DNA of 64,000 nt from Squalus acanthias (GCA_030390025.1 CM059432.1:63986001-64050000); one strand, 5' to 3'. Shown: positions 6,458-41,421, counted from the first letter of the stretch. Numbers and translations: made by a program. The notes: generated from the letters alone by a model not told the origin.

Positions 6458-6553
6458 TAAAACTTTGAAAGATATAGTAGACTTAGGGGTTCAGAGATAC
6501 AAATCTTTAAAAGTGGGAGAACACGTTGATAAAGTTGTTAAAAAAAATATATG

Positions 6554-11597: not shown

Positions 11598-11947
11598 GAA
11601 CTTACCAAAATGCAAATGAGACAGGAGAAATTATAATGAGGAATAAGGAAATGGCTGAGAAATTAAACAAATACTTTGGCCGTGATTGTACCCTCAGCGG
11701 TGGGTTGGAGTCGGGTTGGCTGTTTGAGGTTTCCGGTCCTGCTGCCAGTTTAATCCGCTCTGAAATAACGATTTTCCCTTAAGTGGGCTGATTAAGCCCG
11801 TTGTGCGCGATACCCGGCCCAATCAGTGGGTTCGGGTCTGCTGCTCGCCTCTGCTGACGTCTTCCATTCAGCTGCATTTAAGGGGCACATGCAGCCTTGT
11901 TGTTTTTCATTCCTATTCTGATGCTTCTCAGTGTGGCACATAACAAA

Positions 11948-13833
11948 ATGACTGCTTCAAGACCAAAGGCCTCTCCAAGATTCGATGATGACTCCCTTCA
12001 TGCTTTTGTGGAGGGAGTGAGGGCGCCAAGAGGTACTGTTCCCATCAAATGGACGGAGGAAGCCTCCTCAGCAAACCAAGGCAGCCTGGCTGCAAATTGC
12101 TGAGGAGGTGCGCGCCAGGTCTTTGTACTCACGCACCTGGGTTCAGTGTTGGAAAAGGTTCAATGACCTGCTACACACAGCAAAAGTGAGTATAACATCA
12201 CACTTACCTTCAGTCTGCTCCCCATCTCCTCTCATCACCAGCACTCTGCACTGTTAACCTACTCCTGCACATCCCACTTTACCCTTACATCCCTTGCACC
12301 CTTCACCATCCCTCTCACTCTATATACAGAATCACTTCACTATTCTACTATGCACCCCTCACACTCGCTATCACTGTTATGCAATGACAACAAATAACAA
12401 CGCACAGGGAGGGCCCTTGGTATTGGCACCTCACTCCATCTTTGTCTCCCTCTAAGCATCTATGCTATGGATTCTCTACACTCACTCCAACATTCTCGCT
12501 CAAACTCCACTTGCGTCCCTCATTGCAGGAAAGGAGAGCCCACAATAAGAAGGAGAGGGGCAGGACAGAAGGAGGGCCACCTTTGATTGCCCACTTGACC
12601 ACCGCTGAGGAGGCTGCTCTCGACATCGTCGGAGGTGCTGAGGAGCTGGAAGTGGGGGACAGTCAGACGGGTGCAGTAGAGCAACCTGGTGACAGAATAG
12701 ATTTGCAACCCTCTCATTTAGATTGCATGAGTGACTGAAATGGCATCTGATGTTCATACAGATTGAGTTCTGATCATCTGCACAATTCGATGTGCCTGCT
12801 ACGTTAATATCACATGTCTAACTCATGCATTTACTCCCCCACAGGACCATCAAGAGCCTCCCTCCCCACTGTCCAGGCGGAAGAGCCGGAAGACTCCTCA
12901 GAGGAAGCTGCAACCTCTGAGGGCGCAGTGTCAGCAGAATCGAGCACACCCGGCACCAGCGCAGAGACGCACACCTCGGTGGGTCATTCGCGAGATAGAT
13001 TAGTGTTGTCACCTGGTGTATCACAGCTCACAAGTGAGCTTCAGCAGATGGTGGAGACAGGGACAGCAGTGGAGAGTCCTCATCGGAGGTTGCAGGACGC
13101 TCCTAGCTCTGCTCAGCTGCATGTGAACCCTGTGCCTCTGGGGCCATCCAGAAAGAGAGCGGTGCTGGAACTTCAGCAACAAGTGCAGGAGTCTCTGACA
13201 GGATTTGCATCCACGGTAACTGCGAGTGTGCAGAGAATGGTGGAGTCCATCTCAAACATGAGCAATGCCGTGGTGGAGGCAATGGCGCATGAACGTGCCG
13301 CCATGGAGAGGGTGGCAACATCCTTGGAGGACATAAGTCACCAGACTCAACAGAGCACGGTGACTCTTCTAAATAGATGGTCTGCTATGGAGGATAGATG
13401 GGCATATATTGAGGAGAGACACCAGAGGTACATGGACGTCCCCGTTATGAGGACTGTCAGTACAGAGACGGGTCCTCATGGCCCCACTGATGTGCAGCAA
13501 GGTGCTCTTCAGCTACTTGAGAGGGATGTTGGTGGTCGACAACAAGGAAGTGTGGGCTCCTCTCCAAGCGCTCACACTCCCATGCCACTGCGGAGCCCTC
13601 GGTCAGAGCCCCAGATTCCTCACCCAACTGAAATGGCCGTCTCAGCCCCTGCACAGCCGCAGGAAGAGCAGACTGTTGCTGAGCCCTCCCAGGTTCCCAA
13701 ACCCAGAGGACGCCCGCCAAAGGTGTCAAAGCAAGAGCAGCATGAAAGTGAGCAAGGTGCCTCCACATCTGCTGAAGCCACAGGGGAAGCACTACATAGA
13801 AGCACGCGTAAGAGAAAGTTAACACACAAATAG
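11948..13833 (+). pseudogene. Harbinger Myb/SANT (trihelix) DNA-binding gene, 3 exons, about 462 aa, one frameshift
   Basis: Exons 11948-12185, 12529-12688 and 12845-13833 with GT-AG introns in phases 0 and 1. Motifs PRFDDDSLHAFVEGV, AAWLQIAEEV, RTWVQCWKRFNDL. Apparent 2-nt loss near 12025. C-terminal PKPRGRPPK and RSTRKRK. AATAAA at 13903. Confidence 0.85.
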
Positions 13834-14032
13834 TCACAAGGGTTGTCACTTGGGTGTTCTGATGTAATACAAAGTGAAGATTATCATCGTTATTTCAATT
13901 GTAATAAAGAAATGTGATGGCAAAGATTCAAAGAGTTGGCCTATGTGTGCCCAGAAATGGAAGTGTCACAGTGAGGTACCAGGGTGCCTTTCATCTGTAA
14001 TGATGGTGGTGAGAGTGATAGGAACCCACAGT

Positions 14033-14206
14033 TTATTGTACAGATGCCCTGCGCTGACACCCTCTGCCCTGTGCAGCATCAGGTGGGAGAGGAGGAGGTT
14101 GGCGCTCCTGTTGTTGCTGCTGCTGTTGTGCCTGGTTCTGCTGCTGCCACAGCTGCTCTTCCTCCAATTCTGAGGGACAGGATGAGAGGATATAAATGGT
14201 TCCCAT
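14033..14206 (-). pseudogene. Truncated N-terminus of the convergent second (presumed transposase) ORF
   Basis: MGTIYILSS...EEEQ-polyQ...PPDAAQGRG then stop; homologous remnants at 9540-9712, 3660-3770 and 52750-52890. Assignment rests on position, which matches the clearer HARBI remnant at 25810-25960. Confidence 0.55.
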
Positions 14207-14220
14207 TCTGCTGGTATATA

Positions 14221-14781
14221 CAGGAAACTCTTTGGTATCCGGCACCGACGGGACCGGCGTGGTGCCGGTTGATCGAAAGTTCCGGATAACGGAGAGTTAT
14301 ATCTACCGAGGCTATTTTTAACATTAAAAAATCAAGAACTGTGCAGTATACAGTATTTGGTTACTCACCTACAGAATGTTGTGTTAAATGGATGGTGGAA
14401 GATGCTTGATTAAGTACTGTACTGCCAGTTGAGGGTAACTCTTTAATTACTTAACAGTAAGTGAGACTCCCGGCAGCGCGGGAGAATCAGACTCCTGTTA
14501 CTGCAGTGTTCGGACTTCCGACAGCGCCAGGAGGCCGAGTAGTGGCACTTTGGAGAACTACCCCCACTGACTGACTCGGCGTTCGCGGGAGACTCGGACT
14601 CGGATTCGGCAACATTGCCGGTTATTTGAGAGGAGTTTTCGGAGTACTCGGCGTTCGCGGGAGACTCGGACTCGGACTCGGCAACATTGCCGGTTATTTG
14701 AGAAGAGTTTTCGGAGTATGATTTTTGCCGGTTAAGAGAGAATTCCGGATATTTAGGTGCCGGTTCAACAAGAGTTTCCTG
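14221..14781. mobile_element. Tc1/mariner-pogo (Tigger-like) MITE nested in Harbinger
   Basis: TIRs CAGGAAACTCTTTGGTATCCGGCACC / GGTGCCGGTTCAACAAGAGTTTCCTG; flanks TA/CA. Internal 72-bp tandem duplication at 14574-14718. Confidence 0.8.
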
Positions 14782-17020
14782 CATCTCAGTTGAGGAATAG
14801 ATGTTATAAGCGCTCAGTCAATGTGGGGAAAGGGTTTTCCAAGGAGTTCACAGTGCATATTGATCTCAGCTTAAACACTTACAAGCTCAATAGACCTGCA
14901 AAATGTGTTCCAACACATCAAAACACAAAGTTCTGCCATCTGAAAGTCAGCCATGTTACAGGTCTGCTTTTATGCTGCAGGAGCAGCTGTCAAGAATTCA
15001 GGTAGTTGCTGAACCCGGCACAATCAGCTGGCGTGTTTGGCGCACAACGTGGAACATGCTGAAAATGTCGTAAAATGGGAAGAGCCTGTTAAAATGGGAT
15101 TATGTAGGCAGTTAACAAGCTGTTAACTGCCTTAAGTGCCTCTCCCAGACCCGACACTTTGCAAAGCTGCGTGGAGGCGGGATGGCGGCAGGTTCGCAAC
15201 CCGCCGTCAATCATTTAGATTTTCACTCCTGACCCGCCTCCAAACCCACCCTCTGAGCGCCGGCAAAATCACAGCCTTTGTGTCTGTCTTCACTGAAGAA
15301 GACGCAAAAAACTTCCCGGAAATAGTGAAGAACCAAGGGTCTAGCAAAAATGAGGAACTGAAAGAAATTAGCATTAGTAAAAAAATAGTACTGGAGAAAT
15401 TAATGCGACTGAAAGCCGATAAATCCCCTGGACTTGATGGCCTACATCCTAGGGTTTTGAAAGAGGTGGCTATAGAGATAGTGGATGCATTGGTTGACAT
15501 TTTCCAAAATTCCCGTGGATTGGGAGGTAGCAAATGTAACCTCACTATTTAAGAAAGGAGGGAGAGAGAAAACGGAGAACTATAGACCAGTTGTCCTGAC
15601 ATCAGTAGTAGGGAAAATGCTAGAATCTATTTTTAAAGACATGGTAACAGGGCACTTAGAAAACAATAATAGAGCTGGGCAGAGTCAACACGGATTTATG
15701 AAACGGAAATCGTGTTTGACAAATCTGTTACAGTTTTTTGAGGTTGTAACTAGCAGAATAGATAAGGGGGAACCAGTGGATGTGGTGTATTTGGATTTTT
15801 AGAAGGCATTCGATAAGGTGCCACACAAGAGGTTATTAAACAAAATTAGGGCTCATGGGATTGGGGGTAATATACTAGCATGGATTGAGGATTGGTTAAC
15901 AGACAGAAAATAGCTAGTAGGAATAAACGGGTCATTTTTGGGTTGGCAGGCTGTAACTAGTGGGGTACCGCAAGGATCAGTGCTTGGGCCTCAGCTATTC
16001 ACAATCTACATCAATGATTTGGATGAGGGGACCAAATGTAATATATTCAAGTTTGCTGATGATACAAAGCTGGGTGGGAATGTAAGTTGTGAGGAGGATG
16101 CAAAGAGGCTTCAAGGGGATATAGACAAGCTAAATGAGTGGGCAAGAACATGGCAAATGGAATATAATGTGGAGAAATGTGAAGTTATCCACTTTGGTAG
16201 GAAAAATAGAAAAGCAGAGTATTTTTTAAATGGTGAGAGATTGGGAAATGTTGGTGTTCAGAGAGACCTGGGTCTCCTTGTACACGAATCACTGAAAGTT
16301 AACATGCAGGTACAGCAAGCAATTAAGAAAGCAAATGGTATGTTGGCCTTTATTACAAGAGGATTTGAGTATAAGAGTAAAGACATCTTACTGCAATTAT
16401 ATAGGGCCTTGGTGAGACCACACCTGGAGTATTGTGTACAGTTTTGGTCTCTTACCTAAGGAAGGATAAACCTGCCATAGAGGGAGTGCAACAAAGGTTC
16501 ACCAGACTGATCCCTGGGATGGGGGGATTGACCTATGAGGACAGATTGAGTAGACTAGGCCTATATTCTCCAGAGTATAGAAGAATGAGAGGTGATCGCA
16601 TTGAAACATACAAAATTATTACAGGGCTTGACAGGGTAGATGCAGGGAGGATGTTTCCCCTGGCTGGGGAGTCTCGAACCAGGGGTCACAGTCTCAGAAT
16701 AACGGGTCGGCCATTTAGGGCTGAGATGAGGAGAAATTTCTTCACTCAGAGGGTGGTGAATCTTTGGAATTCTCTACCCGAGAGTGCTGTGGAGCCTCAG
16801 TCGTTGAGTATATTCAAGACAGAGATGGATAGATTTTTGGATATTAAGGGAATCAAGGGATATGGGGATAGTGCAGAAAAGTGGAGTTGAGTGGAGTGGA
16901 TTTGAGTGGAGTGGAGGAGTGGATTTGAGTGGAGTGGATCTTATTGAATGGTGGAGCAGGCGCGAGGGGCCAAATGGCCTACTTCTGCTCCTATTTCTTC
17001 TGTTCTTATGTAAATGATAG

Positions 17021-17063
17021 GTTTTTTTTCCCTATCTTTAAATATTTTGGACTACATTGTAAG
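17021..17063 (+). CDS. Candidate 43-nt host exon (R-FFFPIFKYFGLHCK)
   Basis: AG at 17019-17020, strong donor AAG|GTAAGA, phase 2 to 0, in frame with 517-557. Unconfirmed. Confidence 0.3.
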
Positions 17064-17419
17064 GTAAGAATAAGAAAAACTGTCAGAATTTAATTTATAG
17101 TCCAAATATTTCTATAATTCTATTTTATATTCAGTATTTGAAATTGGTCCTTTTGCAAATTTATGATGTGTAGCTGTTTTGAAACCTACAAAAGCAATTT
17201 AGCATTTAACATGTAAAGCATGATTTTAACCATAAAAATCTATTGAAATTACTAAAATAAATTTATGAATAAAAACTACAACAGTGGGCTAAAAGATAAT
17301 TGAAATTTCTATAAGCCAGATTCCTGTGAATCCAACATCAAAGCATTATGCTTAAACCTATTGGGAGCAGTAAAATAACAGGATTAAATTCAATGACGTA
17401 CTAGACGTCAAATCATTAT

Positions 17420-17490
17420 TGAGTGTCTTAGACGTCCTCTGTTTAGTTGTAAAGGGGAGATGGGTTTCACTGGCTATTGCCCAAGACTTC
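17420..17490. repeat. 71-bp dispersed direct repeat, copy 1
   Basis: Matches 19380-19450 with one mismatch. Confidence 0.9.
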
Positions 17491-18055
17491 TAAATAATGT
17501 AATAGTTCTAATTGTTCTTCTAGTGTCCTGTTAGTTTCATGCCATAAATTTGAGTATTTTACTTTCTTCTATCCATTCTTGCAGAGATTTGTGTTTGTTT
17601 GAAGCTCACCGTATCTCTGCGGCATTGGGAGCCCCTGCTCAATATTGGCTGAGTCCCCTTCACTCTCAGCATTTGAAATTATCCAACAGATGTTCCACAC
17701 ATTCACAAATTGTTCTGACTGCCTCACAAATTGTTCTGACTGCCTCAGCCTATCTTTCCCCTCATTTGCTTCCAAACCAGGGATCCAATTTCTAGAGCTG
17801 GCATGAGTAGACGGAGAAGATTGTATATAGTTAGCCATATTTTTCAGCTGTATACTTGATGTCGTTCTTATTTAGTTTTTAATTGACCAGGCATTAGATA
17901 CATAGTGCTCATGACAAGGTATGAATTGTCTTCCTTGTGAGGAGCATTTAGGTGTGGACGTTGCTACCAGTATCACTGTTAACCCCAATGGGAAAAGCGA
18001 TCTCCTATGCCATGGTGCTATAGCATTATTTTATTTAATGCTGTCACACAATATT

Positions 18056-18811
18056 GGCCCAGAAATTCCGTTCGCAGCCCTCCCGCAGGCGGAGGGCTGC
18101 GATTTGGAAAAATCTCCGCCTGGACTGGAGGGCTCCCGGGAGGCGCGGAATTCCGTTGCTGTGCCTCTTCAAACTGCCGGTGTGCAGGGCACGCATATCC
18201 CAGGGGCGCAGGTAATTCGCAGCGTCCCTGGGATCACGTGGGCCATGGGGAGCCAATCAGAGCAGGGAATCTCCATTCATAGATTTGACAGGAAGACCTG
18301 TCAAATCTATGAATAGAGATCAGCCCCAAAACATAAGTAAAACTTCAAATAAATTTAAAAAAAAATCACATTTTTAAAATGACTATAAATTACATAAATT
18401 AACTATTTTAAACAAAAATTTAAATTTTTGAAAAAAATAATTAAAGTTTTTAACGGGGCTAAAAATAAACTTACCTTTCTTTAAAGTATTTTAAAATGAT
18501 AAATCAGTGGAAATTTTTTTTTTTTACTTTCTTCAACTATTAGCCTGGTAAAAGCAGGCCTTGCGCCTGCTTTTCTAGGCACAGCTGTTTCCGACTTACC
18601 TGGACTGAAGCAATTGTGAAAAAAACGGAAGTTTCAGCCGTACGCGCTGCCTATCCGGCGCAGGCGTTTGACCTGTCGAGCCCTTTCTTCACAGAACAGA
18701 AGTTCCAGTTTCCAGCGCATGCGCAGTGCATGCCTAAAATCGGCACTTCCGTTGGCCCTACGGGTGAGTACACAGCGCGTACACACCTGTAGGGAACGGA
18801 ATTTCTGGGCC
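18056..18811. mobile_element. Harbinger-type MITE, TSD ATT
   Basis: Perfect 18-bp TIR GGCCCAGAAATTCCGTTC; ATT on both flanks. Confidence 0.92.
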
Positions 18812-19379
18812 ATTATGTACTGTTGAATAATATGCAAATAAAAACTCTAGAATTTACAAAAATGCAAAAGGGAAAATTCTTCTCATTGGAATCCCAACTG
18901 AGTCAGGGACAGAGGCACTGTTAAGTTTTAATGCCAATCTATGCAAAGGCAAAATAAATGAATGTAGGCAGCACTGGGTGCATTGCATTCGCAAATATTT
19001 GCCCATGTCTACCAGTTCTACAGCAGCAATGCACTAAATTCACATCATTAATAGGGTGAAGAATAAAATCAAAATTTCCATGCTACTAAATGTTTGTGTG
19101 TCACATTCTCTGACATTGATGGGGCTTATTAATGCCTCAGACATGATCAAATCCTGGAGATGAAAAGACAAGCTGTAAAAATTAAATATCCAAGAAAGGT
19201 AGAGATGTACAGCAGATCAATCAACAACTGAGCAGATCAATGAACAACTGAAAAGGAAACATAGGTTAACATTTCATCAGAATTGTTGATTCTGACATGT
19301 TAACCTATCTTTCTCTTTCTGATCCCAACTGATTTGTGTATTTGTTGCATTTTTTCTGGTAACCAGTTTCTGCTTCAGC

Positions 19380-19450
19380 TGAGTGTCTTAGACGCCCTCT
19401 GTTTAGTTGTAAAGGGGAGATGGGTTTCACTGGCTATTGCCCAAGACTTC
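19380..19450. repeat. 71-bp dispersed direct repeat, copy 2
   Basis: Matches 17420-17490 with one mismatch. Confidence 0.9.
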
Positions 19451-21365
19451 AACTATATTTTATTTATAAAATGTATTTCAAGGCAGTTCAAAACAAAGCT
19501 GCCTTTTCTGTTTGTAATAGCAGTTCCCACAGGTAGGTGTCAACATCAATCAGGTTTCTGTGTTAAATGTGCAAGAGATGGTTTTTATTTTATCCTTTGC
19601 ACACAAGTCAGCTCATGATAGTAGCTTTGTGTTCAAAAACAGTGCATTGATACCATAGGCAAGTATTGTTTAGTCACAAAACTGGGAAAACATGGGCCCA
19701 ATCGTACTGACAGTACATTGATAGCTAATATATTATCCTTAGGATTTTCAGAGATACCACACAGTGTTAAATAACAGGAAGAATATGGTGAGAAAATATT
19801 TGCATCCTTTTCCAATTAACAATCTCACACACTGAACGTAAAACATGTTTTTATAATAGTGATGCATGGGGTGAAATGGTAGTGCATCAGTATTTTTTAA
19901 ATTAAAACTGCTGCAAATGTGTCATAGCTTGTTAAATTGGAACATGTTTATAAATAAAATGATCTTTATAAAGCTACACCATTAGCCAAAATACAGTTCT
20001 AGAGTAAATGAGTCTATTCAATCCATTAGTTTAGATCTTGGGTGTAAAGTGGTAAGGAGCAAGGGTAAAGGAATAGGGTCATAATTGCTCCATGGTGATT
20101 ATAACCAAAATGCATTATGCAATTTCTTTTGACATATAAGCTGTTAGGTTGCATTTTATCGACTTGATGACTGTACATTTTGAAAACAAGAAAGTGAATA
20201 AAGCCATAGGAAGCAGCAGTTATTGAACCGTTGGAAAATTTGTGTCTCTGCCCTGCTGAAGGTGGCAGGATCCTGCTGATTCAGCAGCCATAGATCTAAA
20301 GAAAGGGTTGTTGGCATTTGAATTTGTGGCAATGTGCTCTTGCAGCCTCACATTGTGTATGCTTGGGTACATCTCGTTTAACCTGCCACTGGAGCAGAAT
20401 GGATATGCCTGACATAGCATAGAATGAGACCTGCTGCCGCACATTTATAATCCAAGGAAAGTCTTATTATGGTCTTTTAGAACTCTGACTTTTGATTGAT
20501 ATAAAAAGTAGTTTGATTTTGCAATTTCTTTTGTGGAACTTGCTTTCTTTCTCATCAAGGCAAGGGATGTCGATGTTTTTCCACTTTGACCCAGTCCCAG
20601 CATCAAAAAATTCCCAGAGTAGGCATAACATAGCCAGCTGCAGAATGTATGGAACTTCCTTAATCTGCTCCAACAAGGTATCTACCTTCATTCAAACCTC
20701 AGAAGAGCATCTCCAATTACAGCGCTGTAATTTTTAATTCATCTCTCCATTATAGCTATGGTCTGTTATTGCTAACCTGGTGACAAATTATGTGTTTTAG
20801 ACTTATCTCCACTGTGGTCTTGGATACGACTGTCTAGCTGGATACAATAACAAGAAGAAATAATTTACAAAATTGTCCCTGGTGATAGCTGTAAGCACAG
20901 AAAGACTTGGAAACCTTGTAAATTGAGTGCCAGTCGGCAACAGATTCCCCATTGCCTAATGCATAGTCCAGCAAATCTCTTCAGTAAGCAATGGTTAACT
21001 CAGCATTTAAACTGCATGCAACACAGGTAGTATATTAAGCATGACCCGTTTGAATTATTAGAATATATTGAGGTGCAGAAACACTTGCTGTATCTCCCTC
21101 ATGAAGATGGACATGCAGCTCGAGTCTTGAGGTGCTGCTCATCAAGTACACCATTCAGTATGGCTTTGGACTGCTCTGAGCCTGAGAGCAAAAGATGGGT
21201 GTCTCCTACAACCTGTCAAACAAGACTACCATATTCCATCTGGATGGTCAAAGGCTTGCTAGAAGATTAAAGATAACAAGTAGGGCTGAGCTTTTCTACT
21301 AGCTTTTCCACATCTTTGTCGCAGTGTACCGCAATGTGATTAATAAGCTAAGGAGCTGAATCATT

Positions 21366-22054
21366 GGGGTGAATTTTAACCCCAAAAAATGGGTGGGTTG
21401 GGATCGGGTGAGATGTTAAAATTTTAAAAATCTCAAACCCGACCCTAACCCGCCACCAACCCACCCACTTCCAGGTTTAACGGAGGCGGGACAAGAGGCG
21501 GGCAGCAAACCCGCTCCCAGAATGTGGGTTGGCAATTTAAATATTTTAATGAGGCTGGCCGCTTCAAATGGAACCTGCTTTGCAAGTTTAACCCTGGCCG
21601 ACCAGGTTTCCCGGGCTTCGGGAAAAGGCAAGTGCCTTTGCAGTACAGCTTGTGGGCTAAGAGAAGCAGGTTCCCCCAGCCCCCCAAGCTAACCTTCTTC
21701 CCTTGGATCGGACACCCCCATCAGAACCCCTCCATGCAACGACCCCCCCGACCATAGATCAGAACCCCTACCTCCCCCAGGGTCAGGGATCGAATCCCCC
21801 CCACGCTCCCACGAGCAGCTGCAAGCTCCTTACCTGAGGCTGCGGTCTGCTCTGGAGTGCTCCCTGCCTGACTAGAAGTTAAGCTTGTCAATCAGGCTGA
21901 CTTCCAGGCGGGGATCCTGCTGTTAAAACAAATACGCACGCTGTGGAGTTAAAACTCCACAGCATTCGAAGAAACCCGGACTTCCGGGTTTCCTGACTGA
22001 AACTCTAACACCCCCACCCTGCTCACCAAACCCGCCCCTGTCAATATCTGGGGC
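21366..22054. mobile_element. Harbinger-type MITE
   Basis: GGGGTGAATTTTAAC / GTCAATATCTGGGCC ends; flanks ATT/ACT; GC-rich body. Confidence 0.7.
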
Positions 22055-22372
22055 CACTGTAACTGCAGGGATTTTTCAACCCTTATTGACATATTCTTCT
22101 CAGAATGAATAACACACCATTTTCCCATCTACTGTCCCATTTCATTCCGTTTATGTAGGGATTTAGTCAGCACCTGTCTTTCAGAAGGGGAACTAACCAT
22201 TCTGTAAAGGGTGGTGTCATCAGCAAAAAGAATATTGTTTTTGAAGATAATAAGAGGAAAATATTTTCTTATAGAGTATATTTTCTTTTAATTATGCGTT
22301 AGTTATTTTATTATACAGCCATTGCCATGCTTTGCTCTCTCAGCCAGAATCACATATTATTCCAGGATGCAA

Positions 22373-22487
22373 AGTTCTGGCGACTGGTCATCGACCTGAA
22401 ACGTTAACTCTCTTTCTCTCTCCACAGATGCTGTCTGACCTGCTGAGCATTTTATTTCAGATTTCCAGCATCTGCAGTATTTTGCTT
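22373..22487 (+). mobile_element. Penelope-derived short repeat with degenerate hammerhead
   Basis: Homologous to 43020-43152; core mutated to CTGGCGA...GACCTGAAACGTTAAC. Confidence 0.75.
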
Positions 22488-23618
22488 CAATAAATATTTG
22501 GTATTTGATTTAACATAAAGGTGACATTTAGTAACTGGGTTAAATCTTTGAGACTCCACTCCTGTCGGCGAGTCATGTTTGATTGGAGCGCATTTCAGAG
22601 AATTGAGCATGGAAGTCACTGTTCCTGATTTGTGATGTGCCTGATTTTTCTAACCTCCAAGTTCAATTGTGCTCAAATGAGACTCCATGCCAAGTGTGGA
22701 ATCTGTGAAAATGTACCCTCCTAGGTCCTTTAATTACACCATGGGATAATAGTAGATGAGCACTTAACACTAAGACCTGCCTTAACTTGATTTGTAACAC
22801 TTTTATTTTCAATGAGGATTCTAGTATAAGAATAACAGTGAACAGCTGAATATAAAATAAGGCCCTGAAATTACACTGCAGGAGCAACCCATTTAAAGTA
22901 AATGGCTTATAGTCTCTGCTAAAATAGTGAGAGAATAACTTCAAATAAATGCATTAGATGTTCGTAAATAATTATCCTGCAGAGTAACTTCTGGGTCATA
23001 ATTAATTATTTTACATTCAGATCACTTTTTCAGCAGTACGAGCAATCCAACCTAAAAATAAAACTATTACAAATCAATTTTAATTCTGGTTGTAGGGCAG
23101 GCACTAGATCATTGGATTATAGATAGGAGGATAAACAATCATAACAGACATTGAATAGCTGCACTAACGGTTGAATTGTTTTAAACAGTTTAATGATTGT
23201 AAATTAATATACGATTGTACTGTTTAATATATTACTGCACTACAATTTGTACTTTAATACATTGGATGAAGAAGGTTATTCCACATCCTACTCAAACTCC
23301 TGGTTGAAATGAACAGTTCCACTAGTTGCCAAAAAACAGGTTTTATTCCTTTACATCCAACCTCTATCACTTGGTGACTTCCGAAAGGGAGATTTTAGTA
23401 AATGCTTTGTCAAAATGACAGGGCATTCTATGCCCTTGGCCAGGAACTGTCTGTCCCTATGCTTTTATGTCCAATCCACTGTGAGCAGCCAGCTGGCAAT
23501 GGCACTTTGGCTTCTGCGTGGGCTGCTGATGTCATTTTGTAATGTTTGTCTAATTATTTTTTGTCTAATCTGACCATTGGATGCATTACATTACTTTTCC
23601 TCCAGATTTAGACATATT

Positions 23619-27277: not shown

Positions 27278-27600
27278 GGAATCGTAGAATGATACTGCAC
27301 AGAAGGCAGTCATTCGGCCCATCTTGCCTATCGCCGGCTCTTTGGTAGAGCTATCCAATTAGTCCCACTCTCTGCTCTTTCCCCACAGCACTGTAATTTT
27401 TTTCCCTTCAAGTATTTATCTAATCCCCTTTTGAAAGTTACTGTTGAATCTGCTTCCACCACCCTTTCAGGCAGCGCATTCCAGATTACGACAACTCGCT
27501 GCGTTTAAAAAAAAATCCTCATGTCGCCTCTGGTTCTTTAGCCAATCACCTTAAATCTGTGTCCTCTGGTTACTGACCCTTCTGCCACCTTCTCTGCTCT
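27278..27600 (-). mobile_element. CR1 3' fragment
   Basis: Reverse of RGHRFKVIG...RVV-IWNALPE and CR1 3' UTR. Confidence 0.8.
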
Positions 27601-27606
27601 AACGTA

Positions 27607-27735
27607 CTGACGAAGGGTTCGACCCGAAACATTGACTCTGTTTCTCTCTACTCGATGCGGCCTACCTGCTGAGTGTTTCCAGCATTTTCTGTTGTTATTT
27701 CAGATTTCCAGCATCCGCAGTATTTAGCTATTGGA
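27607..27735 (+). mobile_element. Penelope-derived short repeat with hammerhead-like core
   Basis: CTGACGA AGGGT TCG ACCC GAAAC followed by the same body as 43020-43152; stems I and III mutated. Confidence 0.75.
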
Positions 27736-28149
27736 TTATACTGCAATGTCTTGCGAACTCACTGATGGCAAATGATTATGCCAGTTTTTGTGCAGTTATT
27801 AAATGTGAGTACACTGTAAGCACACGGCACAAAGCTGGCGTGAAGAGTTTATTGAAACAAAAGCTTAGCAAGATAAGATCTTGCAGCAATGCTTCAGCAT
27901 TCTAAAATCAGTAAAGCCACCAGAACCTAGAAATTACTGATGGTGATATTACTGGATAACAATTGAATGCATTTGTATGATGTATGTTTTCCCACTGTTT
28001 TTGCAGTTATAAACCAATTAAAATAAATCCCAGTGCTAAAATAATGGACAGAGGAATGTTATACAAATGCATTAAGGTTTGTCCACTAATACCACCAAAA
28101 GTAATTACTAGGCTTAGATCATAAAAATGCAATTTTGGATGTGAGGCAT

Positions 28150-30361
28150 GGCCTAGAAATTGGAACCTTTAGTGCCAGCTATTAAGGCCGATTTTGAAGA
28201 AAAAGTGGCGTCCGCGTCGCTTCCAGCCACTTCCGGCGCGGAACGCAGCGGCCGCCATATTGGGCAGGTCAGCAGCGCTGCTGTTGCCTGCGCTCACCTC
28301 AAACATTTTAATATCAGGAACGTGACATCATTCGGCGTGCAGTGCTGAATTGATGCACGCTGAGCGATTTTGGATGTCGCCGCTCCTCTTACTGCCCTCT
28401 CCAAAGCACGCCCATGCGTGCAGCTGTTGCCAACTCATAGAACCAGGAGAAAGCAGCTATAGATCTCTGCCAAAGTCTTCGATAACTCTGCAGAGTATGT
28501 CCAGTCCAGTGAGATGGCTCATGGTCATTGCTGCAGAAACTCATCAGCAGATTGAATGCCTTTTCTATACATGTTAGATGTCAGCATTCAACCGGAGCAA
28601 GTCAGTGAGTTCTGGCACGTAATGTGTACAGAACAGCATATGGTTACAAATAGTCAGAGGGACTTATAATGCATCTAAATGTCTGATACTTTACTGTTGG
28701 TCAGTTGTGTACCGCAAGACAAACATGAGGGCACCAAATTTTCAAATCTTTCTAATAAGCGCTTGCAGTAAACTGGAAATGAAATGATATTTGGGCTTTG
28801 TAAATGTTTACTGTTATTGTTACAAACATCCGTATTGAATATGCATCCTGTTCCTCTGAAGTAACAGGTGTGTGCGTATTACATTTTCAATTAAAGGAGA
28901 CCTAGTGACTTTTTCCTGTTTCTGAAGGAATTTGTACATCTGCATTTACTCGTATCGATATTCAGGTGTTCAGGGTATCCAGTAAATTTTTCACATCTCT
29001 TGGTCTATTCAGGAAGGAATCATGGATCACCTATGCCAGCTCTGACATCCAGTATTGCAAACAAATCTCCCAATTCCAGTACAACACTACCCTTTCCAAA
29101 TGCTTATCCAGGTACTTTATAGAGAGATAGGGGGAAAAATTGGGTTGCTTTGCGCCTCACGTTAGCGCCCTAAGAGGGCGCTAATGGGGCGTAAAGCAAC
29201 TAGCACCCGGGCGCGGCGCCGCTCACGCCTCCCGTGAAATTCAGCGGGAGGCTAGCGGCGGCGCTAACCGGTAGCGCCCTGCGGCGCTGTGCCGCCGGCG
29301 ATGACGTCATTGCCGTGCACAGCGTCCCACTCGCGCTTCGGCCGTGATTTTGGGAGCGCCCCCTGACTTACCGCTGGACGCTATGTCCAACGGGGTCAGG
29401 GGGGCCTACCTGCAGCCGGGGAGGCGCAATTTAAAGGCGAGGTGCGGGGCGGCTATTTTTGTTGCTAGCTGCCTGCCAGCACCTGCCTGCGCTCCCGTCC
29501 CCGGCCTCCTGAATGACCCCCCACCCCCGCGGAGTGCCGGCTGCGCTCCAAGAGCCCGGCACTCCCGATCCCCGGGGGCCCAGCTGGGCCCCAGGTTGCG
29601 CTGTGCAAGGCCCCTCCCCTTTAAGAAGGGGAGGAAGGCCTGCAATACCGTGGCATGTAGCGCCACGATAATGACTCACAGCGCCTCAAGAGGGATGCGG
29701 TGCGCTTCCAGATCGTGGCCGGGGTGTGAGCGGGGTTCTGCGCACGGCGATGATGTCATCGCCGGCGGCGCAGCGCCACGGGGTGCTACCGGTTAGCGCC
29801 GCCGCTAACCTCCCGCTGAATTTCGCAGGGGGCGTGGGCGGTGCCGCGCCCGGGCACGAGTTGCTTTGCGCCCCATTAGCAACCTTTTAGGGCACTAACG
29901 GGAGCCGCAAAGCAACCCAATTTTTCCCCCTTACAGTGAAAAGCCTCTGTAATAACAAAGACTTTTCACTATATATGTGTATTAAAAGAATAGGTTGCTT
30001 GTATTTGTATGCTAGGGAGTAGAATTGGAAATATTGGTTGCATCCTTTAAAATATGTCAGTGTATTTTTAGGCTTTCGTTATCTTGCATACCCTCTCTGT
30101 CAACCTACAAACATAACCGGAAACATTGCACTTCACTTTAAGAAATCGCGATTTCCTGAGAGAGCCACACAGATAGATTAGTACCTTCCTGCTGATCTTA
30201 TCGCTTGAAAAAGCGCGTTGCACGCGAATTTCTGCGCTGCGCTCATTTAAATCAGCAGGCAGCACCAAAATACCGGTGCTACCTGCGCTCTTTTTACGGG
30301 CAGCCGTTACCTTGGCCCGGGGTGGCACCGCCCATTTTTGGGCTTAACCAAATTTCTAGGC
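28150..30361. mobile_element. Possible old Harbinger-type element; ends only
   Basis: Inverted termini GGCCTAGAAATTGG (28150) and CCAAATTTCTAGGC (30361) with CpG-rich subterminal regions. No clean TSD, so they may be two separate half-elements. Confidence 0.45.
29130..29930. mobile_element. Foldback MITE with about 190-bp TIRs
   Basis: GGGGGAAAAATTGGGTTGCTTTGCG... mirrored at the right end; flanks ATA/TTA. Related to 41422-42162 and 63238-63876. Confidence 0.92.
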
Positions 30362-31601
30362 AATTTTTTTTTCGGTAGATGAGAGTTGACCAGTAATGAG
30401 TCCAGCATCAAGAACCATAAACAGTGTAAATTACTGAGAGGCAACATCTCATTGCAACAATAACAAATGATGATTACTGCAAATTTTTCTCAGAAGTTTC
30501 GTAGAATTACAGCACAGAAGGAGGCCCTTTGGCCAATTGTGTCTGTGCTGATGCTATTTCTTCAACAAGAGATATCTGCTGTAACCCTATTTCCCTGCCC
30601 TTTTCCTTTATCTTTTTATATTGTTCCTGTTCAAGTACTTATCCAGTTTCCTTTTAAATGTTATGTCTCAATGGCAACTTATGATGAAGCATTTCATATT
30701 TTAATAACTCCCTGTGTGAATCTTCTAACTGCTCCTTTTATACTTATTGTGGTAATCCTGAGTCTATGACCCTACTGTTCAGTTTCTGTCCTGAATTCTA
30801 TTTGCATTTCTTTCATGTTCAACCTTAGCTGTTTCAACAGCACTTTTAGTAGTTACGTCACTCATTTATTTTCTTCCTGTGCAGCACTTTACACTTGTTA
30901 ATTTAAAATTTCATCTGCCATTGGACATGTGCGTGGGGCAGATTTTCCTCTGGAGTTACGCTGACTCCTCAGTTTACCTCTGGTAGGCTTCGAAGCAAAA
31001 TCGGGTGAAGAGCCACTCCTCTGGCTCCTGACCACCCACCGCCATTTTTCACTGGAAATGACTGGAGGTGGGGGTGTAGCTCCAATATATCAGCCCAAAT
31101 ATGGCCAGATTATTATAATGAGGTGAACATGATAGGAAAATCAGTCCTATATTGTCTAACATTCTTTAGTACCTGGTTAGCCTCTTCAGGTTCAACTGCT
31201 CCTTCCAGTTTGGTATCACCTGTGAATTTGACCAGTTTGCATTGCGGTTCTGAATTCAAGAATAATTGAGCTCGGAGTTCTCAAAAAATAGGTCAGTGCT
31301 GAACACGATAAGCTCTGGCTGACTTCAAAATCACTTGTTTATCTGAATGCTTTGCCATGCTGATGACAGTATTGGAGCTGGAGTTCAAAGTTGGAAGTCT
31401 ATATTACTGCTCTGTCTTGTCGCTTTTACTGCACTTAAAATAGGCTGCTGATGTTTCAAGTTTAGTAATAACACAATTAAAATTGACAAGTGTATGTTGC
31501 TTCCAGTGGTTCATTTGGAAAATTTGCTTTTGTAGTGACTTAATCATTTAGGATAGAAATTAATTTGCCATTGTCTTTGGAAGGCAAATATATGATTCAT
31601 T

Positions 31602-32239
31602 AGGGGCAGTTTTCAACAGCCGCCCGTCCCATTTATGAGCTAAACAGTAGTTAAAAATGACAGGGAAACAGCGGCCGCCCTTGGACGCACAAAGTCTGCC
31701 TGATGCAATTTTCAGGCGGGCCTGTAAATGGGCACCCAGCATTTCCACTCAAAACTGGTTTGCATATGCAAATTGAGGTCCTACACTGGTTGTAGGACTC
31801 CATTTGCAATTTTTACATACAAATGCATGAAGTGTGTGCTTTGAACATTCCACCCATTTGTACCAGGTGGGAAGTGCCAAAACCTCCAGTCCTTAAAGGG
31901 AGCACTGGAGGTCATTCCAAAAATATCCTGGAAGATTTCTTTAGGGAAATATTTGGGGGATCTGGAGGAGCCCACTGCTGGTTACTGGGTAGGTCCCCTC
32001 CAGTACACCTACCCGCTCCCTTTTTAGTGCCAGTCACTGACTCTGCTTACTCATGGAGCCACCAGATTTTTGACACCCCGATTTGCCAAGCTGCCCGCTA
32101 GCACCCATTGCATTTAGACAGCTTGCCGACTCTATAATAATGAGGCACAAACTGGAAAATGATCCGGGCCTCCCTCTGAAGGGTTTGGACACACCACTCT
32201 CTCTGTGCCCGTTTTAGGCTTATGTTTAAAATCGTCCCC
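31602..32239. mobile_element. Harbinger-type MITE, TSD ATT
   Basis: AGGGGCAGTTTTCAAC / GTTTAAAATCGTCCCC; ATT on both flanks. Confidence 0.7.
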
Positions 32240-35200
32240 ATTGTATTTTCCAACATACGTAAGTCATAACATCGAGATTGTAGACTGCTTTTCACCGTGA
32301 CTGCTGTTACATTCTATGGATAAGAGGAGCTTCCTAAGCTTCTGTAGACCATCTCAAGGGTCGACAGTTTTCAGTATAAAGGGACAAGCAGAATGGACTG
32401 TCTTTCTAATAGAGTCTATTTAAAAGAAGTGTTTAAACCATTTTTCATAGGATTACATAGGATATACGGCATAGAAACAGGCCATTTGGCCCAACCAGTC
32501 CATGCCGGCATTTATGCTCCACTCGAGCCTTCGCCCGTCTTTCCTCATCTAAATCTATCAGCATAACCCTCTATTCCCTTCTCCCTCATATGCTTGTCTA
32601 GCCTCCCCTTAAATGCATCTATACTATTCGCTTCAACCACTCCCTGTGGTAGCGAGTTCCACATTCTCACCACTCTTTGGGTAAAGAAGTTTCTTCTGAA
32701 TTCCCTATTGGATTTCTTGGTGACTATCTTATATTGATGACTTTTAGTTATGCTCTTCCCCACAAGTGGAAACATTCTCTCTGTATCCACTCTATCAAAA
32801 CCTTTCATAATTTTAAAGACCTCTATTAGGTCACCCTTCTTTTTTCAAGAGAAAAGAGACCCAGCCTATTCATCCTTTCCTGATATGTATACCCTCACAT
32901 TTCTGGTATCATCCTTGTAAATCTTCTCTGCACCCTCTCCAATGCCTCTATATCCTTTTTATAATATGGCGACCAGAACCGTACACAGCACTCCTAAGTG
33001 TGGTCTAACCAAGGTTCGATACAGGTTTAGCATAACTTCCCTTCTTTTCAATTCTATACCTCTAGAAATAAACCCGAGTGCTTGGTTTGCTTTTTTTATG
33101 GCCTTGCTAACCTGTGTTGCAACTTTTAGTGATTTGTGTATTGGTACTCCGAGTTCCCTTTGTTCCTCTACCCCACCTAGACTCACACACTCCAAGTGAT
33201 AAGTGACCTCCCTATTCTTCCTACCAAAATGTAATACCTCACATTTATCTGTGTTGAACTTCATTTGCCAATTATATGCCCATTCTGCAAGTTTATTAAT
33301 ATCCTCCTGTAACTTGTTGCAGTCCTCCTCAGTATTGACTATCCCCCCCAATTTGGTGTCATCCGCAAATTTAGAAATTGTGTTTTTGATTCCAAAGTCT
33401 AAATCGTTAATATAAATTGTGAACAACAGTGGTCCCAGCACTGATCCTTATGGAACATCATTACCCACCTTCTGCCACTGTGAATAGTTACCTTTTACCC
33501 CTACTCTCTGCTTTCTGTCTTGAAACCAGCTAGCTATCCATTCTGCTACTTGTCCCCTGACTCTGCATTCTCTGACCTTGTTCATCAGTCTATTATGGGG
33601 TACCTTATTGAAGGCCTTTTGAAAATCTAGATAAATTATATCTGCTGCATTACCATTGTCTACTCTCTCTGTTACCTCTTCAAAAAATTCAATGAGTTTG
33701 GTCAAGCAAGACTTTCCCTTTTGTAATCCATGCTGACTATTCATTATTATATTTTTGTTTTCTAGATGTTCTTCTATTTTCTCCTTTAGTAGGGATTCCA
33801 TTATTTTTCCTTACATCGATGTTAAGCTAACCGGTCTATAATTCCCTGGACATGTTCTATCCCCCTTCTTAAATATAGGTATTATGTTAGCTATCCGCCA
33901 GTCCTCTGGCAATACACCTTTTTCTAATGAATTATTACATATGTGCAGTAAAGCCTCTGCTATCTCTTCCCTAGATTCTTTTAAACTGCGTGGATGCAAT
34001 CCATCCGGACAAGGGGTTTTATCCTCTTTGAGTTTGATTTAATATATCCAATCTTTTTATTTTGAATGCACTTATCTCATTACTAATCTCATCATCCAAT
34101 GTCATGTCCACCTGCTCTATCTTCTTGGTAAATACTGAAGCAAAATAATTATTTAATATTTCTGCCATCTCTCTATCGTTACCTGTGGTATTATCCTGTC
34201 TATCCCTTAATGGCCCTATTCCCATCCCAACCTTCCTTTTTTTATTGATGTGCCTGTAAAATATTTTACTATTTTGTTTGATGTGCCTTGATAATTTAAT
34301 TTCATAGTTCCTCTTTGCCTTCCTAATTTTTTTTGACTTATCTCCTAATCTCTTTGTAATCTCCCTTATCATGCACTCCCCTGCTGTCTATGTACTTAAT
34401 GTTTGCCTCTTTCCTTACCCTCAATTGTTCCCTTACGGCTTTATTCATCCATGGAGTCTCATTAGTGTTTAGTTTGTTCTTTCCTTTTAGCGGAATATAT
34501 TGTTCCTGCACTCTGTTGAACGCCGTTTTAAATGTTTCCCATTGCTGTTCTACATCGTTGTTTGCCAATATTGTTGCCCATTTTATTTTCCCAAGTTCTA
34601 TGCTCAGTCCCTCAAAATCAGCTTTTCTCTAATCTATTACCTTGGGTTTCGTCATACTTATGTCATTCTCTTTTATTATCTTAAAGCGTATTATATTATT
34701 GTCACTATTGCCTAGATGTTCCCATACTTTTACTTCTCTTATCTGCTCTGGCTCATTCTCCATTACTAGATCCAATAACGAATCCTCCCTTGTTGGGCTT
34801 TTTTCCATATTGGGTTAGAAAGGAGTCCTGTACACATTGTAGGAACTCCATTCCCTTGTCCCCTTTACCTACCTCTTCTGTCCAATTAATATCGGGGTAG
34901 TTGAAATCCCCCATGATTATTATTCTATGTTTTTTACTCATTTCCCTAATTTGTCTGCATATTTCTTCCTCCACCTCCCTTCCAATATTAGGTGGTCTGT
35001 AGACTACATCTATTAGTTTGATTGATCCTTTATTATCTTTTAAATCTATTCATATGGATTCTATTTCTGTCTTGCTGATAGCTGCGTCACTTTTTTCTAC
35101 TGCCATTATGTTATCCCTAATAAGTACAGCTACTCCACCTCCCCTTTTTCCCTTTCTATCTTTTCTAAATATATTATACCCTACAATGTTTAATTCCCAG

Positions 35201-35510
35201 TCCGGATTTTTCTGTAGCCATGTGTCAGTAATCCCTACTATCTCTGGTTCCTTGCAACGCATGATTGCCTCCAGCTCCCCTGTTTTGTTACGAACACTGT
35301 GCGCATTGCTGTACAGACAGTTTAACTCATTTTTAATAGGATTTCCTCTCACTTTATGTTTAACCATCTTTTTAGACTCCTGTTCTATAACTCTATTTAT
35401 TCCCTTGCCATCAATGTCCTCCCTTACTTTTTTCTTTCCTATGCTCTCTTTTTCTGTTTTGTTTATAATTAGGCTGGTTACATTTCTTGTAGATCCCTTC
35501 CCCCATCTTG

Positions 35511-36660
35511 CTAGTTTAAAGCCTTTGCCACCTCCCTACTTACGATTTCCGCTAGGACACGGGTCCCATCCTGGTTCAGGTGGAGCCCGTCCCATTGGTA
35601 CAGCTCCTTCCTGTCCCAGAACTGGTGCCAGTGTCCCATGAAAAGAAACTCCTCTTTCCCACACCAGCCCTTTAGCCACGTGTTAATTCTCCTGATCTGT
35701 CTGCTTCTAATGCGGAGATGCCGGTGTTGGACTGGGGTGGACAAAAATGAGAAGTCGCACAACACCAGGTTATAGTCCAACAGTTTTATTTAAAATTACG
35801 AGCTTTCGGAGCTGTACGAAGGGGCAACAGCTCCGAAAGCTCGTAATTTTAAATAAAACTGTCGACTATAACCTGGTGTTGTGCGACTTCTCATTTTTGT
35901 CTGCTTCTATGCCAATTTACATGTGGCTCCGGCAATAATCCAGAGATTATTACCCTCGAAGTCCTGCTTTTTAATTTAGAGCCTAGCTCCTGATAGTCTT
36001 TCAGCAGGACCTCCTCCCTGTTCCTACCTATGTCGTTTGTTCCAACATGGACCACGACAACTGGATTTAACCCCTCCCTTTCCAAGTTCCTCTCCAGCCG
36101 CCACCAGATATCCCATACCCTGGCACCAGGTAGACAACACACCCTTCGAGATTCTCATTTTTGGCTGCAGAGGACACTATCTATCCCCCTAATTATAGAG
36201 TCCCCTATCAATGCCACAATTCTATTCTGCTCTTCCCCCGCCTTGTACAGCCTTCTGAGCCACGGTGCTTTGGTCTGCATTGTGGCTGTCCTCCCTGCAG
36301 TCTTTCTCCTTGTCCTCACAGGTAGCAAGTACTTCGTAACTGTTGCACAGGACCAGTGTCTGCGGGACCTCTTTCTCAACTTCTCCTAAATCCCTGCTAC
36401 CCGGCTCCCTAGCAGTCACATCCTCCCCTTCCTGAACCTGTGCTTTCCTCTGGGGTGTGACTGCATTCTGGATAAAACTGTCCAGGAATTCCTCCCCTCC
36501 CTTATGTGTCGGAGTGTCTCCAACTCGCACTCCAACTCAATGACTCTGAGCCGGAGAGATTTGAGATGGAGACATCTCCTGCAGACGTGTTCGCTCGGGA
36601 CAGACTCACTGTCCACAAACTCCCACATTCTGCAGTCGAGACCCACAATCTGCCCTGCTA
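35511..36660 (-). pseudogene. CR1 ORF1: zinc finger/leucine zipper plus SGNH esterase domain
   Basis: CRMWE...HVCRRC, heptad leucines, GDSIIRG, VVVHVGTND, DGLHLN. Frameshifted and interrupted at 35710-35897. Confidence 0.9.
35710..35897. mobile_element. Palindromic Penelope-type short insertion, 12-bp TSD
   Basis: Inverted arms form a long hairpin. TGTCTGCTTCTA at 35698-35709 and 35898-35909. Same family as 50033-50238. Confidence 0.88.
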
Positions 36661-36920
36661 TATCTTAGTCTAGCCTTATTTTATTTATTTAATTAGTTAA
36701 AGTCTTTATTCAATGATTATTTATAGTTATATTAATTAGTTTACCTAGTTAAGCTATAAATTTAATACAGTACTTTGCAGTTTTCCGCACCTTGTTTAAA
36801 CCACTGTCCTAGGTTAGAGAGAAAAGAGAGAAAAACAACCTTAATACTCACCAACCAATCACCTACCTGCTGTCCTGTGATGTCACTCCTTGTTTTTTTG
36901 GAAATCGTCGAAGGTTTGGC

Positions 36921-37320
36921 CACCGCTGATATCGCCTCCAATTAGGTTCGCGCTGCCCGGTCTCCCGCTGTTTAACTACCGCCGCCACTGATACCGCCTC
37001 CAATTAGGTTCGCGCGGCCCGGTCTCCCGCTGTTTAACTACCGCCGCCACTGATACTGCCTCCAATTAGGTTCGCGCTGCCCGGTCTCCCGCTGTTTAAC
37101 TACCGCCGCCACTGATACCGCCTCCAATTAGGTTCGCGCTGCCCGGTCTCCCGCTGTTTAACTACCGCCGCCACTGATACCGCCTCCAATTAGGTTCGCG
37201 CTGCCCGGTCTCCCGCTGTTTTAAGTACAGCCGCCACTGATACCGCCTCCAATTAGGTTCGCGCTGCCTGGTCTCCCGCTGTTTAACTACCACCACCACT
37301 GATACCGCCTCCAATTAGGT
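36921..37320 (-). repeat. 62-bp CpG-rich tandem repeat (about 6.5 units) at the CR1 5' end
   Basis: ATTAGG recurs at 36941, 37003, 37065, 37127, 37189, 37252 and 37314. Confidence 0.95.
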
Positions 37321-37445
37321 GTATGTCACTACATGCTGTTCCTGACGAGCTGGTTTAATGACCAAAAGGGCAGTATCAAAAATAACCAAGACATTTTAAA
37401 ACGTCTAGAATTTCACCCATTACAATCAAGGTCATATCTCAAAAA
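37321..37445 (+). CDS. Candidate host exon (VCHYMLFLTSWFNDQKGSIKNNQDILKRLEFHPLQSRSYLK)
   Basis: Open 125-nt frame ending at AA|GTAAGA. Its putative acceptor tttttcatAG (about 32450) lies on the other side of the CR1 insertion. Speculative. Confidence 0.2.
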
Positions 37446-38059
37446 GTAAGATTGATAACCCTGCCAAATGTTCTGTTTTACAAAATGACATAATGACTAA
37501 ATGTTTGTTAAGTTGTTTGATGGCAGCTGGTGTTGAAGGCCAGTGACTGAAGTAAAATAAATTATTCCACTTAAGAAAGGTCTCGTAAAACCTATGATTT
37601 CATAAAACACAAAACAATTATTTACTCTGTCTTTGTAGAGGAATAGGTCAGGGTTTCTGGGCTGTAGCTCAGTTTGATCAATGGCCATTTTTTTGCATTA
37701 GGTTTGGGAAAATGAAATCCCTGTTGGCTGTGGACATGATACTTGTGAGCTGAAAAATAATGAAGGTGCAAAGCATTTAACACTTGTCACAACAGTGCAC
37801 CTGAGCTAACATTTGAGATTTTTTATGATCCTTTCGAACTGAAGGCTGATGACTAAACATAAAAAAGAAAAACTGAGATAAATTGTATTCAGCATTCCTG
37901 ATGCAAGACTTTATGCACCAGGAATGCCTATGAGAAAATGAAGTGTGTCCTGCCCATGATTTTCTATCCATTTGTCGAAGATGAAAATTTATTACTGTGA
38001 ATGTAGGATTTTTTGGAAAAAAAATAGAAAACTTTGAAAGCAAAGAGAGGGCATGAAAA

Positions 38060-39510
38060 AATATTGGCAAGTAAAATCAAGGAAAACCCAAAGTTGTTTT
38101 ATAAATACATAAAGAGCAAGAGGATAACTAAAGAAAGAGTAGGGCCTATGAGATCAAAAATGTAACCTGTGTGTTGAGGCAGAAGACGTGGGTGTGGTTC
38201 TTAATGAATACTTTGGGCAGAATTTTCATTGACCCGTGGAGGCGGGTTTGGAGGCGTGTGGGGTGGGAAAATAGCAGATTCGGGGGTACCGAACCCATCC
38301 CGCCCCCAACCCGCCTCCATGCCAGTTTCACAGGAGGCGGGTACCCGACCTGTGCTGGGACCCGCCGCCCCGAGGCGGGAAGGGGATTAGTGCCAATAAA
38401 CTGCCAGTTAACAGGTAGTTAACAGGCAGTTTTTTGCCTAATCCCTATTTTTATGCCCTGAAGTGTGGGCTTCCCGACAGGTCCGACCCACGCCGATTTA
38501 GCGAGGCGTACCATGGGTCTGCAGGGGTTGGAGGGGTCGATATGTCCGGTGGGCAGGTGAGTGATGGGTGCATGTGTGCAGAGGTAAGTGTGTAAGGTAA
38601 GTGTAAAGTGTGGAAAAAAGTTTTACTTACCTTAACTTCCTCCTGCAGGTGTCAGCCCTTCAGGTCTCAGGAGTCAGAAATCTCACCAGCACAGAAAGCA
38701 GAATGGCCGTTGAGCTGTCAAAAGCTGCAGCCTCTGCTTTTTGTTCTGCAGAGATCTCTAAATCAGCCTGAGAGGAAGGAATTAACTTAGAGGACAGATT
38801 GTCAGTGTTTGACAGCTTCAAGGAGCTGTCAAACGCTGATATTTCATCTGTCAAAAGCTCTTAACAGATGAAATGTCAATCTGTGACGTCACCTGTTGTT
38901 GGGTGGCCCTTAATTGGCCTGCTGAGCCCGCTGGGCGGGCTCAATAAGGTCAATCAAGGGAAAATCGAGTGGGTTGGCCACAACTCGATGGAGGCGGAAC
39001 TACAACCCCCAAAGTGGGAGTCCCGCCTCCTGCTCGCCTCCATTGATAAAACCCAGCCCTTTGCGTCTGTCTTCACAAAAGAGAGTGATCATGCAGACAT
39101 TGTAGTTGAGGAGGAGTGTGAATTATTAGATGAGATAAACATAGTGAGAGAGGAAGTATTAAGGGGTTTAGTATTTTTGAAATTAGATAAATCACCAGGC
39201 CCGAATGAAATGTATCCCAGGGTGTTAAGAAAAACAAGGGAGGAAATAGCGGAGGCTCTGACCATCATTTTCCAATCCTCCCTGGCTACCGGTGTGGTGC
39301 TGGAGGACTGGAGGACTGCTAACACTGTACCGTTGGGAGAAAGGGATAGACCGAGTAATTACAGGCCAGTCAGCCTAACCTCGGTGGTGGGCAAATTATT
39401 AGAAAAAATTCTGAGGGACAGTATTATAGTCATTTAGAAAGTCATGGATTAATCAAGGACAGTCAGCATGGATTTGTTAAGGGAAGGTTGTGTCTGACTA
39501 ATTTGATTGA
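38060..39510 (+). mobile_element. CR1 ORF2 fragment split by a MITE
   Basis: KIKENPK...VVLNEYF | ASVFTKE...NYRPVSLTSVVGK...QHGFVKG. Confidence 0.9.
38215..39059. mobile_element. Harbinger-type MITE, TSD TTT
   Basis: GGGCAGAATTTT / AAAACCCAGCCC termini; TTT at 38212-38214 and 39060-39062. Confidence 0.9.
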
Positions 39511-41218: not shown

Positions 41219-41421
41219 AAAATGCTTGAAATGCACATAAGTCAGTTAGTATCTGAAAGAGAAAGAGTGATTAATGTTTTGGCTGTAACATTTCATCAGC
41301 TTAAAGTTTATATTTGAAGCAAATATTAATTGTCTATGAACTGGGGATCATAGAGAAACCCTGTGGTTAATGCCTGTTTCATTGCATATGACAAATTAAC
41401 ACCAAGGTGTATAAAGACTTT

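Follow-up and report, generated by a model that had tools for sequence, protein, structure and literature searches.

A probable target-site hot spot for Harbinger-type elements within CR1 copies of Squalus acanthias

Two different Harbinger-type elements are inserted at one homologous CR1 codon, in two diverged copies of this LINE, within 64,000 nucleotides of the Squalus acanthias genome (GCA_030390025.1 CM059432.1:63986001-64050000; the window, hereafter), and this double insertion is real. The coincidence probably reflects a hot spot set by sequence, of a kind already known, in which ordinary target choice by the transposases meets a matching site in an abundant repeat.

Results

The larger element (E1), the smaller one (M1), their hosts and the empty copies with which they were compared are located in the window as follows.

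11618..11677, + strand: 5' remnant of host 1, ORF2 linker ending LNKYF (tblastn)
11675..11677, + strand: TTT target-site duplication, left copy of E1 (sequence)
11678..15276, + strand: E1, non-autonomous Harbinger-type element of 3,599 bp, 12-bp terminal inverted repeats (10/12 complementary)
11948..13833, + strand: Myb/SANT-like gene of E1 (PF13873, E 7.5e-06, 26.2 bits against a cut-off of 21.7)
14033..14206, - strand: glutamine-rich frame of E1, 57 codons, convergent with the Myb gene
15277..15279, + strand: TTT target-site duplication, right copy of E1 (sequence)
15277..17011, + strand: 3' part of host 1, ORF2 residues ~388-911, then the 3' end (RVT_1, E 2e-13)
32452..35337, - strand: CR1 ORF2 copy, near-complete and with endonuclease, its homologous site (~34142-34144) empty
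38040..38214, + strand: 5' remnant of host 2, ending LNEYF (sequence comparison)
38212..38214, + strand: TTT target-site duplication, left copy of M1 (sequence)
38215..39059, + strand: M1, Harbinger-type MITE of 845 bp, 12-bp terminal inverted repeats (9/12 complementary)
39060..39062, + strand: TTT target-site duplication, right copy of M1 (sequence)
39060..41219, + strand: rest of host 2, ORF2 residues 388-543 forward and 716-907 inverted (~39512-40060)
57690..59335, - strand: CR1 copy related to host 2, site at 59280-59282 empty

The LNxYF|xSVFT codon run of the CR1 ORF2 is interrupted at the same codon by both insertions, and removal of E1 restores LNKYF|VSVFT, and that of M1 LNEYF|ASVFT, each in one frame. 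Compared with one full-length CR1 ORF2 relative, the downstream CR1 halves of both loci begin at its residue 388, and exact 3-bp duplications (TTT), as made by PIF/Harbinger elements, stand at all four flanks. Junctions, restored frames and alignment therefore agree with the initial annotation, which had placed two different Harbinger elements at one CR1 codon, both with TTT. The site is filled in two of the four CR1 copies of the window that cover it, by different families; under uniform insertion the odds of a second insertion on the homologous base are about 1 in 1,750, a figure to be read with the fact that the window was picked afterwards. The coincidence exceeds uniform chance, the choice of the window being post hoc.

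PIF/Harbinger elements have short terminal inverted repeats that start with GG. E1 and M1, both with short terminal inverted repeats, are non-autonomous elements of the PIF/Harbinger type. E1 also has the Myb/SANT-like partner gene of the superfamily, whose transposition requires this protein as well as the transposase, with a PF13873 match over the curated cut-off; the gene has a frameshift in its first exon and probably two introns, judging from splice sites placed by eye. Because no DDE transposase family was found in the 21 frames of E1 that were scanned (35 have at least 50 codons), it was classed as a non-autonomous derivative. Its glutamine-rich frame, common to related elements at 3604-3766 and 9538-9724, gave no significant family and no homologue among 323 candidates and is tentatively, from its position, taken for the N-terminal remnant of a deleted transposase. 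M1 was treated as a non-coding MITE with relatives in the window at 5501-6457 and 59645-60460, the closest of which sit elsewhere than at the CR1 site.

The hosts, which we take to be CR1 from their motifs and in agreement with the initial annotation, the matched proteins carrying no names, have the ORF2 homology of APE-RT elements, with an RVT_1 match and collinearity with full-length ORF2 relatives. CR1 copies are normally 5'-truncated when they insert. Upstream of the site, host 1 resembles CR1 over only ~60 bp and host 2 over 175 bp, and no endonuclease domain was found there in either. The 3' part of host 1 has two frameshifts and two stops; in host 2, ORF2 residues 544-715 were not found in 39060..41219, and the 3' end (40806-41219) lies beyond another LINE fragment. 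Most likely, both hosts were already 5'-truncated and dead before E1 and M1 arrived, and the earlier proposal that insertion disables the LINE is not supported, as both lack the endonuclease and carry other lesions.

It could be argued that a single ancestral insertion gave rise to both, through duplication or through retrotransposition of a filled CR1, and that the element then diverged or was replaced, as the same base, the same TTT duplication and related terminal repeats would suggest. However, the hosts are 63% identical downstream of the site (140/223 aligned bases), host 2 is 89% identical (261/294) to the empty copy at 59280, and E1 and M1 have in common one 87-bp subterminal match at 71%, plus shorter bits, with nothing internal beyond subterminal motifs. 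Because the hosts are so diverged and the elements alike only subterminally, the insertions are independent by these comparisons, which exclude a single duplicated insertion and make a copied ancestral insertion extremely improbable.

A symmetric 15-bp target-site matrix was built without the E1 and M1 sites, from 20 ends of the 12 other Harbinger-type elements of the window, placed by the register of their terminal repeats. The duplication is exact in three of these elements and has one mismatch in five, while the other four gave one end only. The matrix is to be read as a description of 20 aged half-sites, with ends of our own choosing and five uncertain. An A occupies -4 in 17 of the ends (p 1e-7), -2 in 13 and -6 in 11, a pyrimidine occupies -1 in 18, and the triplet is A/T-rich; the preference of PIF/Harbinger for an extended palindromic target (9-15 bp) is thereby found in ends other than those of the two elements under study. 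At 12.39 bits the E1 site outscores every position of the window, and the M1 site has 7.98 bits, a score reached by 30 of ~64,000 positions (99.95th percentile, top 0.05%). Within host-type CR1 DNA each ranks first, the E1 site among ~1,760 positions and the M1 site among ~1,570. The E1 site kept rank 1 in all 12 leave-one-out runs, with the M1 site at rank 1-6, and the ranks were 1 and 2 both with a matrix from exact-duplication ends only and with one from the 15 non-CR1 ends only. The held-out sites of the eight two-ended elements fell in the 86th-100th percentile, and under bootstrap the M1 site had a share of 0.008 to 0.30 and a rank of 1 to 17.

One insertion per host would land on the site in both with a probability of ~0.10 under the matrix, to be compared with the 1 in 1,750 of a uniform coincidence, and falling to 0.028 when the matrix is damped to 0.75 and to 0.0025 when it is damped to 0.5. 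These low joint odds with a damped matrix favour an explanation mostly by chance, in which a weak preference and post-hoc selection from windows rich in CR1 and Harbingers would have produced the pair with no real peak at the site; so do the small number of events, two, chosen from a scan over many windows, and the fact that most of the sequence depth of the host-2 subfamily has an intact triplet away from contig ends. Nevertheless, a matrix blind to both sites places each at or near the top of its host, whereas among 1,000 random training sets none put both first and three put both in the top ten, and the E1 site outscores the whole window. We consider such a chance origin unlikely, and a sequence-driven hot spot the better account of the pair.

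The copies at 34140 and 59280 are empty at the site, as had been described, and a fifth, far more distant LINE at ~45400 is also uninterrupted there. Across the four window copies the homologous site scores 12.4, 8.0, 7.2 and 3.5 bits, the last being that of the 34140 copy (rank 41). The earlier suggestion that alteration of the site accounts for the empty copies is not supported by this comparison, as the 59280 copy has its base change inside the duplicated triplet and its site, at 7.2 bits, is still the first of its host. That change is particular to the copy, because ~98-99% of the summed contig depth in four public runs carries the intact letter at 59282 (516,994/520,392 in run X1); contig depth is no copy number, and these values suggest that intact sites are common and usually empty.

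The hot spot depends on codon choice and not on the amino-acid motif. The motif is widely conserved across CR1 proteins, its pattern occurring at 94 places in 152 proteins, and distant metagenome CR1 loci, at 35-51% identity, score a mean of 1.0 bits at the site in the 15 of 80 that parsed there (2 mis-parsed). The idea of a high-copy LINE landing pad at a protein motif could thus be retained in part: the site is preferred through its extended palindromic target, but a landing pad formed by the protein motif as such is not supported, since the score follows the codons. Given the 14 Harbinger-type elements that the window contains, the matrix roughly predicts occupancies of 0.62 for sites of the E1 type, 0.04 for the M1 type and 0.002 for that of the 34140 copy, with 0.02 for the 59280 site when it has its majority letter, from which occupancy would be around 60% in host-1-type copies, 2-4% in host-2-type copies and 0.2% in those of the 34140 type. 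Since the M1-type value is only ~4%, luck and post-hoc choice still contribute to the pair.

A dedicated targeting of LINEs, in which Harbingers would have adapted to the CR1 ORF2 as a safe haven or to inactivate the LINE, in the manner of Dada, would accord with the filling of two of the four site-covering copies by different families, with the conservation of the amino-acid motif and with the presence of 5/14 of the window's Harbinger-type elements in CR1. However, the same flank motif is found at the 15 non-CR1 ends, which are alone enough to predict the sites; the closest M1 relatives sit elsewhere; both hosts lack the endonuclease, while the only near-complete ORF2 of the window is empty; and the distant CR1 loci score as low as stated above. 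Three other Harbingers in CR1 (at 5501, 6554 and 49691) occupy other ORF2 positions, near residues 705, 750 and 775, nine of the 14 have no CR1 context, and 2/14 are at this site, not most copies as in a Dada-like element. Such targeting is, on this evidence, very unlikely, and ordinary target choice at a well-matching site is preferred.

No third filled CR1 copy was found by any search run. When contigs of the four public runs were compared with 58200-60600 at 80% likeness, none of the 24 loose-end rows covered, out of 6,757, fell at 59278-59286; none fell either at the MITE end at 60460, where many must exist, so that these rows carry no weight against filled copies. Terminus patterns had no matches in viral contigs or in metagenome contigs, and a chimeric MITE-CR1 peptide had none among two candidates. 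In the 150 best representative proteins, no residues derived from terminal repeats stood before the motif, none of 94 candidate stretches in viral contigs was confirmed as a CR1 relative, and no insertion occupied the site in the parsed metagenome loci.

Discussion

The nearest known system is Harbinger3_DR of zebrafish, whose target is given as AAACACCWGGTCTTT in PMC3016246, where, as in PMC2836001, the work is credited to Sinzelle et al. 2008; target preferences spanning 9-15 bp are ascribed to the PIF/Harbinger superfamily in the latter. As in Harbinger3_DR and Harbinger3N_DR, the window elements duplicate 3 bp within a palindromic target of 15 bp. The Harbinger3_DR flanks match the E1 site at 10/12 bases and the M1 site with 4/12 mismatches, and the element at 5501 has a left flank that agrees with one of them at 6/6. 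The Myb-like partner gene of E1 is a further likeness. The triplet differs, being CWG in zebrafish and mostly A/T in the window (TTT, TAA, ATG, ATT); moreover, the window motif looks looser, E1 and M1 are non-autonomous, and their preferred site lies inside a high-copy LINE. By analogy with Harbinger3_DR, the window motif probably reflects transposase choice.

Two other systems offer partial parallels. PIF and the mPing Tourist-like MITEs (PMC2836001) have in common with the window elements a non-coding MITE mobilised in trans, a 3-bp duplication and a preference that reaches beyond it, although the plant preference is of 9 bp and that of the window of ~15 bp. Dada (PMC3706591) is likewise a DNA transposon that occupies a single position in a conserved multicopy sequence, but its duplications are of 6-7 bp and its specific targets are small-RNA genes, whereas the window Harbingers have many unrelated insertion sites, CR1 being one good match among them. 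A literature search that did not extend to most subscription papers or to Repbase yielded nothing on hot spots of Harbinger insertion within CR1.

We envisage that the Harbinger transposases of this genome would pick a loose 15-bp palindrome, approximately A-R-A-N-A-Y, a mostly A/T duplicated triplet and the mirror image, and that the x-Tyr-Phe-(Ala/Val)-Ser codons of some CR1 subfamilies would happen to spell this palindrome well. CR1 being very abundant, independent Harbinger families mobilised in trans could then strike the same base more often than elsewhere, presumably at no cost to the LINE family when the hosts are dead 5'-truncated copies already. From this, the CR1 site would be expected to be enriched genome-wide.

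A more speculative proposal is that the site of the host-1 subfamily comes so near to the ideal Harbinger target that a large share of its copies, up to ~60% as the matrix predicts, are filled at this one base, and that it is thereby a de facto site-specific sink, from which active CR1 lineages would have been selected to escape through synonymous codons. The near-complete and apparently younger CR1 copy keeps the amino-acid motif yet reaches only 3.5 bits, as this proposal would have it, but the same copy has better-scoring positions elsewhere, at 9.8, 9.3 and 8.9 bits, and insertions into truncated copies cost the lineage nothing. We regard such avoidance as highly doubtful; if true, it would be a case of target-site avoidance between two transposon classes.

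Most likely, neither a new mechanism nor an anti-retrotransposon system is indicated by ordinary target choice at this site. Its significance is rather that a known 15-bp transposase preference would become a base-exact hot spot when a high-copy repeat matches it. The matrix gives an occupancy ranking across CR1 subfamilies that can be tested, and a common insertion position inside CR1 would be prone to homoplasy, so that it should not be taken as orthology or common descent when this genome is analysed by nesting order or with retroposon-style methods.

CR1 copies and their Harbinger insertions

The most complete CR1 copy in the window is the following:

32452-35337, minus strand: near-complete CR1 ORF2 with endonuclease

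Its top predicted Harbinger sites (33693, 33381 and 32776) score 8.9-9.8 bits under the 15-bp target matrix built from 20 other Harbinger ends in the window, and all of them are empty. A second CR1 copy, 95% identical to it, carries at its RPHL(E/G) motif the right end of a Harbinger, with a TTT triplet (49519-49694), and the left end of this Harbinger, together with approximately 300 bp of CR1, is deleted at this locus. In the MITE at 5501-6457, also within CR1, the right end and about 35 bp of CR1 sequence flanking the element on the outside are repeated internally in inverted orientation (5978-6095 and 6389-6494), which suggests that fold-back or template switching took place once the MITE had inserted.

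Three of the four CR1 copies spanning the LNxYF|xSVFT site end approximately 50-175 bp upstream of it (11618, 38040 and 59335), which may be due to chance or to a stretch of the linker between endonuclease and RT where 5' truncation is favoured. In CR1 host 2, the copy split by the 845-bp MITE, an inverted internal block adjoins a deletion (39512-40060), an arrangement that looks similar to the twin-priming inversions known from L1.

Harbinger derivatives and tandem repeats

Related Harbinger deletion derivatives retaining pieces of the Myb gene lie at 3070-4793, 8390-10231 and ~52240-53760, where, by eye, a transposase gene appears to have its outermost two ends joined to each other; the second is interrupted by a CR1 3' end (8656-8922). 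E1, the non-autonomous Harbinger-type element with a Myb/SANT-like gene, contains a 72-bp tandem duplication (14574-14718) whose copies are 97% identical. The window also holds two tandem arrays (36919-37320 and 1403-2337), one well conserved with units of ~62 bp and the other degenerate.
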